DNA from: a phage
DNA: 64,000 nt
Reading direction: 5' to 3' (one strand)
Sequence record: PZ256263.1
The notes beneath the pieces were generated by a model that saw only the letters and a program-made list of their open reading frames with translations, was not told the DNA's origin and ran no database searches. Numbering within the stretch: the first letter of the stretch is position 1; the number at the start of each line of letters is the position of its first letter. The translations under genes were made by a program, and so were the position numbers. Below are positions 29,986-32,228 of the stretch, piece after piece.

Positions 29986-30130
29986 ATGTAGGGTTGACCT
30001 GCCTCTTTTAGAAAGTGCTCAAGGAAAAGCACTAGCCACTACGTTGGAGTGGTATCAGGACCAGTACACAGAATGTGCTGCCAATCACAATGGATTGCTA
30101 GAAGCTCTGAAAGAGCGTGGAATAGAATAA
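29870..30130 (+). CDS. o-spanin-like (Rz1-like) lipoprotein, +1 frame overlapping i-spanin 3' end
   Basis: Internal ATG of track ORF 29771; MRKLNQFFIMSALVMSMSAC signal with lipobox-like MSAC; Pro-containing mature part. Confidence 0.45.
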   Translation: MRKLNQFFIMSALVMSMSACSMSDNSRQSMPLPTNLKAECRVDLPLLESAQGKALATTLEWYQDQYTECAANHNGLLEALKERGIE

Positions 30131-30570
30131 TGGCTATTGTTTTTGAAGGAAAAGCCAATGTATTCACGGTGGACGTCCAAACAGTAACCTGTACAGTGAA
30201 CCTAGTTGGTGTAATGGGTGCAGGAGTGGCTGAGGAGTATAAAAGAAGATACCCTGAAGCTTTTGAGAGATATAAAGTTGCTTGCAACTCTGGATTCCAG
30301 ATTGGACAGCTTCTCCTACAGAGGTTAAATGATGGGAGATTGGGGCTGTGTTTTCCAACCAAGAAACATTGGAGAAATGGGTCTGAGATAGAGTGGATAG
30401 AACAGGGTTTACAAAAGCTATTACTTACCTACAAAGATAAGGGAATCACCTCTCTAGCCATAACACCTCTTGGTTGCGGCAATGGGGGACTAGATTACCA
30501 ATCTCAGGTAAGACCTATAATGTTTAAATATCTAAATCAGATGGACATACCTGTCTATATCTGTTTATAA
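30130..30570 (+). CDS. macro domain protein (ADP-ribose binding/processing)
   Basis: Internal ATG of track ORF 30049 overlapping upstream stop; [23 protein letters not shown] and [12 protein letters not shown] match macro-domain Gly-rich motifs. Confidence 0.7.
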
Positions 30571-30589
30571 TAGCCAACAACAAGGAAAG

Positions 30590-31237
30590 ATGATGGCGAA
30601 GAAAACAACACCTACAAGATATCGAATTCATGGAATCCCAATCAAATATATCTCAAACTATGAAGAGTTCTACAAGGTGAACTGGAAAGTGGTTCACAAG
30701 TTCTTTATGTATGATATCAGGGATTACCATGAAGCAGAGGATGTGGCACAGGAAGTGCTCTTGAATGCTTGGAGATTTGTCTTCGCTAAGCAGGATGAGA
30801 GAGTCCTAGAGGATGAGAAAGACCAAGAGCATATGACTTATCGAGTCAAGAATATTATCTGGTCTATACGCTCAAATAGGCAGACTGTAGGGGACCGTCG
30901 TATCTACTCTATTCCAGAGGCTGATATGTTCCGCACTCCTGATATGGTTGATAGTCCTTTAGAGATTGCGATGGATAAGCAAGACTCTGTTGGTGACCCG
31001 TTCATGGAGTCTCGTATCTTCTACTTCTTCCAAGATTTAAGTGATACGATGGATACTCAGAAGTTAGCCAATATGTTCTCTATGATCTTCTTGGGAATAC
31101 CACACGATCACATTCAGAAAACTATTGGCATGTCACATGGAACTTTCTACCGACGTTATGCAGAGTTAAAAGATCTGTATGAATATATGGTAGAGAAGCA
31201 CTTTGATAAAGAAGAGTTTCAAGGGTTGATTACATGA
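30590..31237 (+). CDS. phage-encoded sigma factor (ECF/sigma-70 family-like)
   Basis: Track ORF 215 aa; region-2-like [14 protein letters not shown] and region-4-like [22 protein letters not shown]. Confidence 0.6.
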
Positions 31238-31626
31238 AAGTGATAGTCGCAGGAAGCCGGTCAATAGACTGGCATTCTTTCACTCAGATGTGGGCTTTAC
31301 TTCCAGAGGAAATCCCTAAGCTCATTTCAGAAGTTGTGTCAGGTGGTGCTAGAGGGCCAGATCTTCACGGAGAGGTTGTCGCTAAGCACAACGATATACC
31401 CCTCAAACGTTTCATTCCTTCTTGGAACACACTCGGCAAAAAGGCTGGGATACTACGAAACGTAGATATGGGTGATTATGCAGATGCAGTTATAGTCTTC
31501 TGGGATGGAGAGTCAAGAGGTTCTATGCACATGTTTGAGTATATGAAGAGTAAGAATAAACCGGCAATCCTCCTTACTAAGAAAGGAGATAAAGCAGATA
31601 TGGAAATCACTGGAGAGTGGAAATGA
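31234..31626 (+). CDS. SLOG-fold (DUF2493/YspA-like) protein
   Basis: Track ORF 130 aa; VIVAGSRS ... SGGARGPD ... RN ... [13 protein letters not shown] pattern. Confidence 0.55.
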
Positions 31627-32228
31627 ATGGTGAGTCTAAACCTTTAGTAGTAATTCTTAATGGACCTCCGGGTTGTGGGAAAGATACAATAGCTAGTGCT
31701 TGGGTTAATGCACATTCATACCATCACAATCATTTAACCAAATCCTTCAAGGAGCCGATGTATAGAGTGGCTGCTGCTGCACTAGGAATGCCTCTAGAAA
31801 ACTTCCTAGCACGCTATGAAGATCGTGAATGGAAAGAAAAATCTAGACCAGAGTGGGGAGGGAAGTCTGTAAGAGATTTGATGATTTCTACAAGTGAAGA
31901 CTTCTTAAAACCTATGTTTGGCAACAATCATATGGGGAACCTCGCTGTAAAGAGCATCAAACAAGAGGAGTTAGGTCAGGATGACATTATTGTTTTTACT
32001 GACGGAGGTTTTGATGCAGAGGTACGAGAACTAGAAAAGAATTTCCATGTCCAAGTTGTCCAAGTGCTTAGAGATGGTTGCTCTTTTAATGGAGACTCTC
32101 GTTCATACATTGAAGGGGAGCAGAGAAAAACATATCTGCTGTTTAACGACTCAACTATTGAATCAGCAGTGTTAGATCTAGATTGGATTATCGCTCAAGC
32201 TCAGGATGATATTTATGGAAGAAGTTAA
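31617..32228 (+). CDS. P-loop kinase, deoxynucleoside monophosphate kinase-like
   Basis: Track ORF 203 aa; Walker A LNGPPGCGKDT; GKSVRDLMISTSEDF resembles T4 dNMP kinase segment. Confidence 0.5.
   Translation: MEMNGESKPLVVILNGPPGCGKDTIASAWVNAHSYHHNHLTKSFKEPMYRVAAAALGMPLENFLARYEDREWKEKSRPEWGGKSVRDLMISTSEDFLKPMFGNNHMGNLAVKSIKQEELGQDDIIVFTDGGFDAEVRELEKNFHVQVVQVLRDGCSFNGDSRSYIEGEQRKTYLLFNDSTIESAVLDLDWIIAQAQDDIYGRS

Follow-up and report, generated by a model that had tools for sequence, protein, structure and literature searches.

A phiEco32-like coliphage encodes a macrodomain protein that corresponds to the DarG antitoxin on its own and probably defeats the toxin DarT2 by stripping ADP-ribose from phage DNA. 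We analyzed a 64,000-nt stretch of DNA (the window), which belongs to a Kuravirus (phiEco32-like coliphage) about 97% identical to known isolates and is part of a 77-kb podovirus genome, about 13 kb of which lies beyond the window. Around the genes examined here, 3.5 kb of sequence shares 95 to 97.5% identity with phiEco32, SU10, and ev_rybdy3. A first-pass annotation had proposed that a macrodomain gene, a SLOG gene, and a P-loop kinase gene next to a sigma factor gene constitute a possible counter-defense or nucleotide-signal processing module. Our analysis retains the macrodomain protein as a predicted anti-DarT factor but not the single macrodomain/SLOG/kinase unit. The best overall explanation, to which we assign a probability of about 0.7, combines an anti-DarT2 macrodomain protein, a dNMP kinase, a DprA-like SLOG protein, and the sigma factor gp36 that do not form one module. 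The macrodomain gene would then behave as a mobile accessory anti-defense gene, and the block from the macrodomain to the kinase gene would be a stretch of a phiEco32-type middle-gene operon rather than a dedicated three-gene device.

Under this explanation, a host DarT2 toxin would ADP-ribosylate thymidines in single-stranded phage DNA, and the macrodomain would cleave the thymidine-ribose bond by means of Lys78 together with Asn24 and Trp81 (K80, N22, and W83 in TaqDarG, the Thermus aquaticus protein). Once rid of ADP-ribose, the DNA could again be replicated and packaged; the mechanism would be that of the anti-DarT factor macro (AdfM) proteins PhiKZ gp104 and T4 Tk.4. The T4-gp1-like dNMP kinase would feed dNDP/dNTP synthesis for phage replication. 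The SLOG protein, with ssDNA or a nucleotide as its most likely ligand, would belong to the machinery for replication, recombination, and nucleotide pools. The sigma gene between the macrodomain and SLOG genes would be that of the known gp36.

Gene order and transcription

The earlier open reading frame coordinates and plus-strand orientation of the macrodomain, SLOG, and kinase genes were borne out in the window, as were all three domain calls, with matches far exceeding chance; all features described here lie on the plus strand. Upstream of the block, the gp36-dependent promoter element of phiEco32, TAATGTATA, recurs without a mismatch at 28763 to 28771. The consensus for such promoters is tAATGTAtA, and one of them precedes phiEco32 gene 40 (PMC8948821); the element at 28763 corresponds to this mapped P40 middle promoter. 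The first gene after it, the equivalent of phiEco32 gene 40, encodes a gp40-like protein (28831 to 29577; phrog_6599, 1.2e-118). Between this gene and the spanin genes lies a terminator-like hairpin (29599 to 29616) with a 7-bp stem, five G-C pairs, and a TTTTTCG tail, which may attenuate transcription. An i-spanin (29635 to 29985; phrog_1152, 2.8e-37), annotated as an Rz-like spanin in relatives, is followed by a probable o-spanin, an Rz1-like lipoprotein with an MSAC lipobox (29870 to 30130 from its putative start; phrog_2425, 9.8e-26) that also carries the o-spanin annotation in relatives.

The o-spanin stop overlaps the start of the macrodomain gene (30130 to 30570) in the sequence TAATG at 30128 to 30132. 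The sigma factor gene (30593 to 31237; phrog_1740, 2.6e-45) encodes the orthologue of phiEco32 gp36, with 99.5% identity, and probably starts at the second ATG, 30593, because ribosome-binding-site spacing favors it. It is followed by the SLOG gene (31234 to 31626, phiEco32 gp35), the kinase gene (31623 to 32228), and the gene for a 5'-3' exonuclease/flap endonuclease, phiEco32 gp33 (32215 to 33033; phrog_107, 9e-65; Pfam 5_3_exonuc_N). The overlapping stops and starts reported previously are real, with ATGA at 31234 to 31237 (sigma/SLOG) and at 31623 to 31626 (SLOG/kinase); the kinase and exonuclease genes overlap by 14 nt and are translationally coupled. The gp36-promoter element and the overlapping start and stop codons along the gene run suggest an operon, and the P40-like element probably drives transcription of the downstream macrodomain, sigma, SLOG, and kinase genes. 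The gp36 sigma factor has already been characterized (PMC8948821, PMC12276001) and is outside any counter-defense function.

Two further promoter-like sequences were seen. A sigma-70-like match, TGGACA-18-TATAAT (30542 to 30571; 11/12 positions, a consensus match only), lies in the 3' end of the macrodomain gene, shortly before the sigma gene. A gp36-promoter-like site inside the macrodomain gene (30518, one mismatch) was dismissed, 20 such sites being seen against 18 expected by chance. No tRNA or Rfam families were found in the window.

A DarG-type macrodomain

The macrodomain protein (146 amino acids, homologous to phiEco32 gp37) was assigned by HMM matches and residue alignment as an orphan DarG2-type macrodomain of the AdfM class. 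In profile searches it matched Pfam Macro (1.3e-10) and phrog_335 (7e-34), as well as the DarG models of PADLOC (4.3e-45) and NCBIfam (antitoxin_DarG, 6.3e-42), both DarG profiles being matched at positions 6 to 144 of about 330 only. Searching the PDB with phmmer retrieved Mycobacterium tuberculosis DarG (1.6e-27), the DarTG fusion 7omu (2.8e-26), and T. aquaticus DarG (4.7e-25), with TARG1 reaching only 0.016. The protein is also 41% identical to PhiKZ AdfM (E of 2e-35). These matches place it in the DarG clade and not in the generic macro family. A full-length DarG antitoxin of a type II/IV toxin-antitoxin system was rejected, since the score against the full-length NCBIfam model was 144 bits, below the cut-off of 250, and the neighbors are the o-spanin and sigma genes.

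We compared the protein with TaqDarG, for which the roles of individual residues, including the catalytic and ADP-ribose contacts, have been described (PMC5179494). All of the ADP-ribose-contacting and catalytic residues align, and N22, T79, K80, H82, W83, and G117 to G121 are identical; N24, K78, W81, and G115 to G119 of the phage protein correspond to N22, K80, W83, and G117 to G121. In TaqDarG, N22 and K80 are catalytic, W83 stacks on thymine, and G117 to G121 form the GNGG phosphate loop. TaqDarG K29 and Q34 are replaced by A31 and E36. A K29E substitution reduces the activity of TaqDarG (PMC5179494), and PhiKZ AdfM, which is active, likewise has Ala at the K29 position. The suggestion of the first-pass annotation that the macrodomain reverses DarT-type DNA ADP-ribosylation is thus supported as a predicted role, because DarG-clade membership, the catalytic residues, and the identity to PhiKZ AdfM coincide. 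The enzymatic activity and, from homology, the DarT2 target are thereby predicted.

Presence and absence in the Kuravirus group were counted by tblastn in a phage collection, because a query of IMG/VR with the sigma protein returned four Kuravirus loci only. The sigma gene was present in 99 Kuravirus-group records, the SLOG gene in 68, and the macrodomain gene in 41. Relative to NJ01, the macrodomain gene is a clean single-gene indel of 463 bp, and copies 80 to 82% identical occur among the early genes of the unrelated Chaseviridae phages DE15 and TH37. The macrodomain gene is missing from at least 19 Kuravirus records that carry SLOG, and the Chaseviridae phages have it with no SLOG gene nearby. 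Composition gave no signature of recent transfer (GC of 0.408 for the gene and 0.424 for the window). Of its 80 nearest relatives in IMG/VR, 32 (approximately 40%) adjoin a DarT gene, 14 of these partners being canonical DarT (PF14487, 1.8e-58) and 18 a DarT-like protein (2.9e-20). No DarT was found when its HMM was run against the six-frame translation of the window, beyond which lies the remaining 13 kb or so of the genome, and a literature search linking Gordonclarkvirinae to DarTG turned up no reports. Of the 120 best macrodomain homologues, none contains a SLOG domain, and the extra length of the longer ones is a C-terminal extension only.

The SLOG protein, the kinase, and alternative readings

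Sequence searches of the PDB, both single and profile, gave marginal DprA matches (E of 0.03) and spurious hepatitis E virus ORF2 (HEV ORF2) matches for the SLOG protein and P-loop matches only for the kinase; therefore, fold searches were needed. The SLOG protein matches the Pfam YAcAr HMM (PF10686, formerly DUF2493) and has the three layers of a Rossmannoid fold, strand 1 being followed by a Gly-rich loop. It is closest to the ssDNA binders DprA and ShosA, which score nearly equally and above the cADPR sensor ThsA, and some homologues carry a precomputed PF02481 (DprA) match. With respect to the published ssDNA-pocket motifs of DprA, G-S/T/A-R and F/L/Y-x-x-R-N/D, and the LOG motif PGGxGTxxE (PMC3950713), G7-S8-R9 and R75-N76 show full or almost full conservation in the family; the aromatic residue of F/L/Y-x-x-R-N/D is Gly72, so that ssDNA binding is not assured. 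A LOG phosphoribohydrolase was ruled out, as the family motif is W-D-G-x-S-x-G-T-x-x-M, in which the invariant Met100 replaces the catalytic Glu. Most likely, the protein is a minimal Rossmannoid domain of the DprA type, with ssDNA or a nucleotide as its predicted ligand. Unlike DprA and ShosA, it has neither a SAM nor a winged-helix domain, its 130 amino acids being taken up by the core domain.

As a viral stand-alone SLOG, it is a direct member of the YAcAr/DUF2493 family treated in published surveys (PMC9503650, PMC7824862). The surveys predict a role in NAD/ADP-ribose signals, whereas the contexts found here are mostly replication and nucleotide-metabolism genes, from which, with the motifs, the ligand is predicted. 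Within 6 kb of the SLOG gene in 57 lineages were genes for a 5'-3' exonuclease (16), ribonucleotide reductase (RNR; 15), a metallophosphoesterase (14), PolA (13), a DUF3310 kinase (11), and ThyX (10, 8 of them directly adjacent), and a macrodomain in only 4. Fusions of the YAcAr domain are sporadic: one is to a DarG-type macrodomain (locus L013; 266 amino acids, the sole such fusion found) and another to an SF1B helicase (ICP1 HelB). A literature search for experimental papers on DUF2493/YAcAr found none. Conserved order in phage replication modules can stem from common ancestry, not common function.

The kinase (201 amino acids) corresponds to phiEco32 gp34 minus an N-terminal domain of approximately 100 amino acids. 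Its fold is closest to that of T4 gp1 (PDB 1DEK), and a Walker A motif is present, although identity to T4 gp1 is 20% and PDB sequence matches are confined to the P-loop. These features identify it as a standard T4-gp1-type dNMP kinase of the replication gene set, with predicted dNMP activity. In sister phages such as NJ01, this position is filled by a DUF3310 "nucleotide kinase," irrespective of the presence of the macrodomain gene; the exchange lends indirect support to the predicted phosphorylation of dNMPs and represents one enzyme replaced in place by a nonhomologous one. PHROG names link DUF3310 to T7 gp1.7; T7 was absent among the matches listed when the NJ01 DUF3310 kinase was used in tblastn.

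A different reading of the region, close to the first-pass annotation and to the general prediction of Iyer et al. 2022, is that the macrodomain and SLOG proteins, perhaps with the kinase, act as one NAD/ADP-ribose-signal unit, in which SLOG would bind or cleave cADPR-type signals as in Thoeris and the macrodomain would process ADP-ribose products. The L013 fusion is consistent with this, as are locus L048, where the macrodomain gene directly follows the SLOG gene, jumbo phage L126, where the two are 1.1 kb apart, the presence of SLOG in every checkable macrodomain-positive Kuravirus record, and the co-occurrence and fusions of Macro, SLOG, and NADAR across viruses (Iyer et al. 2022, PMC9503650). 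However, SLOG lies near only 3 of 80 macrodomain loci and a macrodomain near only 4 of 80 SLOG loci, and each gene occurs without the other in the Kuravirus and Chaseviridae genomes noted above. Moreover, the macrodomain belongs to a DNA-specific clade with a thymine-stacking Trp and its PhiKZ counterpart works alone in E. coli, SLOG, devoid of the LOG catalytic Glu, is nearer to DprA/ShosA than to ThsA, and the kinase is T4-type and exchangeable for the DUF3310 enzyme whether or not the macrodomain is present. We consider a single signaling unit unlikely, and degradation of NAD-derived immune signals received no specific support. The earlier claim that the three genes make up one functional block fails as well, because the macrodomain is an independent single-gene indel seldom found beside SLOG, the kinase is a standard one, and SLOG is DprA/ShosA-like.

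The substrate of the macrodomain could instead be ADP-ribosylated protein or RNA, O-acetyl-ADP-ribose, or ADP-ribose-1''-phosphate. Record names such as "Appr-1-p processing enzyme" and "phosphatase," the generic Pfam Macro match, the changed contacts at TaqDarG K29 and Q34, and the action on proteins of TARG1, which among eukaryotic macrodomains is nearest to DarG in fold (PMC5179494), point this way. We nevertheless regard such a substrate as quite improbable, given that DarG models outscore all other families by >20 orders of magnitude, that DarT is physically paired with 32 of the 80 closest relatives, and that the 41%-identical PhiKZ protein removes DarT2 marks from DNA. For SLOG, a role as an orphan antitoxin mimic, a minimal ShosA/DprA-like protein protecting against ShosTA, would place an antitoxin mimic on either side of the sigma gene, in a phage that turns host transcription off. 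ShosT is neutralized by ShosA via ssDNA binding, the trigger of ShosTA is host transcription shut-off, and sigma-70 transcription is shut off by gp79 in phiEco32-type phages (PMC8948821). This role is very unlikely: SLOG has no PADLOC ShosA match and no ShosA SAM domain, DprA scores nearly as well, and the family occurs very widely, in modules for replication and nucleotide metabolism from many phage lineages, not all of whose hosts are likely to have ShosTA. A broader version, in which two antitoxin-like proteins acting on damaged or ADP-ribosylated ssDNA flank the sigma gene, with SLOG binding ssDNA and recruiting or assisting the macrodomain (the L013 fusion being the single-polypeptide form) or separately neutralizing a second toxin-antitoxin defense such as ShosTA, is speculative and also unlikely; were it true, a host-shut-off phage would possess a small kit against toxin-antitoxin-triggered abortive infection.

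Significance and comparison with known systems

By its sequence, the Kuravirus macrodomain adds to a known anti-defense class. If its anti-DarT2 role is confirmed, the AdfM class would reach from jumbo nucleus-forming phages and T4 to Kuravirus, whose members are common therapeutic-candidate coliphages, and whether a phage carries this one 441-bp gene would be a simple genomic marker predicting its host range on E. coli and Shigella strains with DarTG2. Natural sister phages exist in collections, with Bas90 and Bas91 of the BASEL collection carrying the gene and Bas93 lacking it. For SLOG/YAcAr, which is widespread in phages, the evidence favors DprA-like handling of DNA or nucleotides, a testable hypothesis, over the published NAD-signal prediction.

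The macrodomain resembles DarG of DarTG2 systems (TaqDarG, 5M31; MtbDarG, 5M3I) in macrodomain sequence (E of 1e-25 to 1e-27), catalytic residues, and the G117-to-G121 loop. It differs in being the N-terminal half only, with no C-terminal DarT-binding domain and no neighboring DarT; the TaqDarG macrodomain suffices alone for antitoxin activity (PMC5179494). The AdfM class has been demonstrated for PhiKZ gp104, which removes DarT2 marks from DNA and works alone in E. coli (PMC13309987), and for T4 Tk.4 (bioRxiv 10.1101/2025.11.20.689424). Kinship with Tk.4 is remote, as tblastn at 1e-5 did not detect it. In contrast to PhiKZ gp104, the Kuravirus protein lacks an insertion of approximately 9 residues and is encoded in a 77-kb podovirus genome without a phage nucleus, in a middle operon between the o-spanin and sigma genes. 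Like gp104, it is a stand-alone DarG-type phage macrodomain without a partner DarT, its 41% identity to gp104 extends over the whole protein, and the catalytic Asn (N23 in gp104, N24 in Kuravirus) and Lys are kept. Carriage is similarly patchy, with AdfM present in about half of chimalliviruses (PMC13309987) and the macrodomain gene in 41 of the 99 Kuravirus-group records.

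Organization and transcription of the operon

The 3.5 kb around the macro, SLOG and kinase genes shares 95-97.5% identity with Escherichia phages ev_rybdy3, MN03, SU10 and phiEco32, of the genus Kuravirus (Gordonclarkvirinae). The gene order of the window is that of phiEco32 genes 40 to 33, namely, gp40-like, i-spanin, o-spanin, gp37 ("Appr-1-p processing enzyme"), gp36 (sigma factor), gp35 ("putative GTP-binding protein"), gp34 ("ATP-binding protein") and gp33 (5'-3' exonuclease), and the macro-to-kinase stretch therefore spans phiEco32 genes 37 to 34. The first-pass annotation had described macro, SLOG and kinase ORFs with overlapping stops and starts, and this observation was confirmed. 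All three ORFs are present: macro (30130-30570; Pfam, 1.3e-10; phrog_335, 7e-34), SLOG (31234-31626; PF10686 YAcAr, 1.7e-6; phrog_289, 7e-25) and kinase (31623-32228; phrog_139 "deoxynucleoside monophosphate kinase," 1.5e-44). The overlaps are real, with TAATG at the o-spanin/macro junction, ATGA at both the sigma/SLOG (31234-31237) and SLOG/kinase (31623-31626) junctions, and 14 nt shared by the kinase and exonuclease genes. Because of the ATGA overlap, ATG 31623, and not GTG 31617, is probably the kinase start; ribosome-binding-site spacing and the annotation of relatives suggest that the sigma gene starts at 30593. The spanin genes (29635-30130) are part of the middle-gene operon and immediately precede the macro gene; the o-spanin, with lipobox MSAC, probably starts at 29870, overlapping the i-spanin in a different reading frame.

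The gp36-dependent promoter element, TAATGTATA, occurs as an exact copy at 28763-28771, and the gp40-like ATG follows about 60 nt downstream. This copy corresponds to the promoter mapped before gene 40 in phiEco32, where the genes of this stretch are of the middle class (PMC8948821). Therefore, the macro, sigma, SLOG, kinase and exonuclease genes form one co-directional, tightly packed and partly translationally coupled middle operon. Tight packing of this kind makes adjacency alone weak evidence of shared function. A terminator-like hairpin (29599-29616; consensus match only) follows the gp40-like gene.

The ORF-free spacer of about 400 bp before the gp40-like gene (28424-28830) holds three copies of the element: two exact, at 28702 on the - strand and 28763 on the + strand, and one with 1 mismatch at 28773 on the - strand. 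The copies at 28763 and 28773 form a near-palindrome. Elsewhere, the element recurs without mismatch at 21746 (+), 38595 (-, closely preceding a gene for a 1488-aa protein) and 55172 (-). The gp40-like protein itself (28831-29577; phrog_6599, whose name assigns no function) is encoded directly upstream of a 5'-3' exonuclease in several other lineages (homologue loci L005, L006, L034 and L056), which suggests a role in replication or recombination.

The kinase slot and the proposed three-gene module

The macro, SLOG and kinase genes had been read as one possible counter-defence or nucleotide-signal module. This grouping was not borne out, while the part of the proposal that concerned DarT reversal by the macro protein is well founded.

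The window kinase matches residues 102-297 of phiEco32 gp34 at 95% identity and, unlike gp34, lacks the N-terminal domain of about 100 aa. In NJ01, MN05, ShigP1, WFI101126 and KBNP1711 the same slot encodes a 178-aa protein with an N terminus like that of gp34 and a C-terminal DUF3310/PHROG "nucleotide kinase" domain (phrog_26149, 8.8e-109; phrog_236, 1.2e-16). Sister phages thus carry three forms of the slot: the P-loop dNMP kinase alone (window 31623-32228), the N-domain plus P-loop kinase (phiEco32, 6024-6917 of its locus), and the same N-domain plus the non-homologous DUF3310 kinase (NJ01, 6384-6920 of its locus, MN05, ShigP1 and others). The catalytic domain has been replaced in place, and its exchange within a retained slot argues that the job of the slot is nucleotide phosphorylation. 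ShigP1 and Paul are macro positive yet carry the DUF3310-type kinase; therefore, kinase type is independent of the macro gene. The kinase is one of ordinary nucleotide metabolism.

The wider distribution was analyzed by tblastn in phage records, counting SLOG at ≥80% and macro at ≥95% identity. The sigma gene was present in 99 records, SLOG in 68-69 and macro in 41, and SLOG occurred without macro in at least 19, including NJ01, 172-1, ES17, PE006, IMEP8, WFI101126 and Bas93. Among the best 80 macro loci in IMG/VR, SLOG lies within 6 kb in only 3, and a kinase of the window's type occurs in only 2, both from Kuravirus.

In one IMG/VR relative (3300045988_017452; L003 6995-7409) an insertion of about 400 bp separates the kinase and exonuclease genes. 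Phage KM01 has an annotated homing endonuclease near its SLOG gene, and the window has an HNH endonuclease gene at 33213-33614.

The SLOG protein

A confident structure model (pLDDT 95) was built from 47 homologues. Foldseek ranked ShosA and DprA entries at the top (TM about 0.62-0.67), with ThsA 39th and YpsA 40th, and a sequence-profile search of the PDB gave marginal DprA matches only. In the DprA alignments the invariant motifs of the family are paired, KVIIAGSR with KVAVVGSR, VSGGARGVD with VSGLAKGID or VSGGALGVD, and RN with RN. The motifs G-S/T/A-R and F/L/Y-x-x-R-N/D form the ssDNA base-binding pocket of DprA, and PGGxGTxxE is cited as the LOG-like family signature (Wang et al., PMC3950713). 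Within the SLOG family G7, R9, R75 and N76 do not vary, and S8 hardly does; Gly72 occupies the aromatic position of the second motif, and an invariant Met100 the position of the LOG glutamate. Together, the Foldseek ranking, the motifs and Met100 favour a protein that, like DprA, would bind a base, nucleotide or ssDNA; they do not favour a LOG-type hydrolase or a ThsA-type sensor. ShosA binds ssDNA, and this binding is required for its antitoxin activity (PMC11961720).

Genomic context was analyzed in 80 IMG/VR loci (57 lineages at 70% identity), counting neighbours within 6 kb. These were, by lineage, 5'-3' exonuclease (16), RNR (15), metallophosphoesterase (14), PolA (13), DUF3310 kinase (11), ThyX (10, directly adjacent in 8), HNH endonuclease (10) and MazG (5). 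A DarG-like macro gene was found in 4 lineages: Kuravirus, L021, L048, in which a more distant macro gene begins right at the stop codon of SLOG (3076), and L013, which encodes a 266-aa SLOG-macro fusion (phrog_289, 2.4e-31; phrog_335, 3.9e-36; PADLOC DarG, 3.6e-54). Searching from the macro side added a jumbo-phage locus (L126) with the two genes 1.1 kb apart. The macro link is a minority pattern, and the main association is with replication and dNTP supply, to which the fusion of SLOG to an SF1B helicase in ICP1 HelB also points. The protein resembles a minimal domain of the DprA type from the replication and nucleotide-metabolism gene set. Each of the two families occurs in <1% of phage records, and by rough estimate the few pairings exceed chance expectation, which fits the Macro-SLOG-NADAR co-occurrence that Iyer et al. 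described (PMC9503650). This evolutionary link to DarG-type macrodomains is rare but real and leaves room for cooperation on ssDNA. The natural fusion (L013 6001-6801) lies on an AT-rich 29-kb viral contig.

The macro gene and its product

Compared with NJ01, the macro ORF and its 22-nt spacer are a precise insertion of 463 bp, placed after the o-spanin stop and before the sigma start, and both junctions read TAATGGC. A strong sigma-70-like promoter match (30542-30571, TGGACA-18-TATAAT, 11/12; consensus match only) lies inside the macro 3' end, 19 nt before the sigma ORF's first ATG (30590); because it is within the inserted cassette, NJ01 and other macro-minus relatives do not have it. Macro copies 80-82% identical were found in the unrelated 54-kb Chaseviridae phages DE15 and TH37, among small early genes and adjoining an SSB gene. 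An 80% identical copy in an unrelated phage indicates horizontal transfer of a single gene. For the copy in the myovirus vB_EcoM_DE15 (L087 3501-3941), a gene annotated as antirestriction is about 3 kb away.

In 14 of the best 80 macro loci in IMG/VR, a canonical DarT gene (PF14487, 1.8e-58) lies directly upstream of that for a DarG of about 357 aa, and a further 18 have a DarT-like neighbour (2.9e-20); the macro clade is therefore physically tied to DarT. No DarT was found in the window. The complete pairs (L149-L152, L156, L117, L125, L130, L134-L137, L158 and L163) lie on viral contigs around 5350-7080, with a DarT of about 215 aa; in the 18 further loci the DarT-like protein is longer, and the macro proteins beside it have roughly 200-360 aa. 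Among the closest relatives of the macro gene, DarTG systems carried by phages or prophages seem to be common.

Against PDB sequences the macro protein matched DarG of M. tuberculosis (5M3I, 1.6e-27), DarG of Thermus aquaticus (5M31, 4.7e-25) and a DarTG fusion (7OMU, 2.8e-26), against 0.016 for human TARG1. The PADLOC DarG (4.3e-45) and NCBIfam antitoxin_DarG (6.3e-42) matches reach only profile positions 6-144 of about 330; therefore, the macro half of DarG alone is present, and the protein is an orphan DarG macrodomain. The protein was aligned with DarG segments, and the numbering was checked against the contact residues of Jankevicius et al. (PMC5179494), who identified K80 of TaqDarG as the catalytic lysine and proposed that W83 stacks on the modified thymine. 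N10, T22, N24, V33, T77, K78, H80, W81, G115, G117, N118 and G119 are conserved, a set that in the alignment covers TaqDarG K80, N22 and W83. Ala and Glu stand in place of TaqDarG K29 and Q34; at the K29 position Ala is also found in PhiKZ AdfM, a stand-alone phage macrodomain (anti-DarT factor macro).

The macro protein is 41% identical (E 2e-35) to this AdfM (gp104). In vitro, gp104 takes ADP-ribose added by DarT2 off DNA; produced on its own in E. coli it relieves DarT2 toxicity, and PhiKZ requires it for growth on DarTG2 hosts (PMC13309987). In an independent preprint, Tk.4, a macrodomain protein of T4 that likewise bears the name AdfM, proved conditionally essential on DarTG2-expressing E. 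coli (bioRxiv 10.1101/2025.11.20.689424). DarT-type reversal is backed by the DarG-clade placement, the catalytic residues and the identity to PhiKZ AdfM, and the macro protein would be a further member of the AdfM class.
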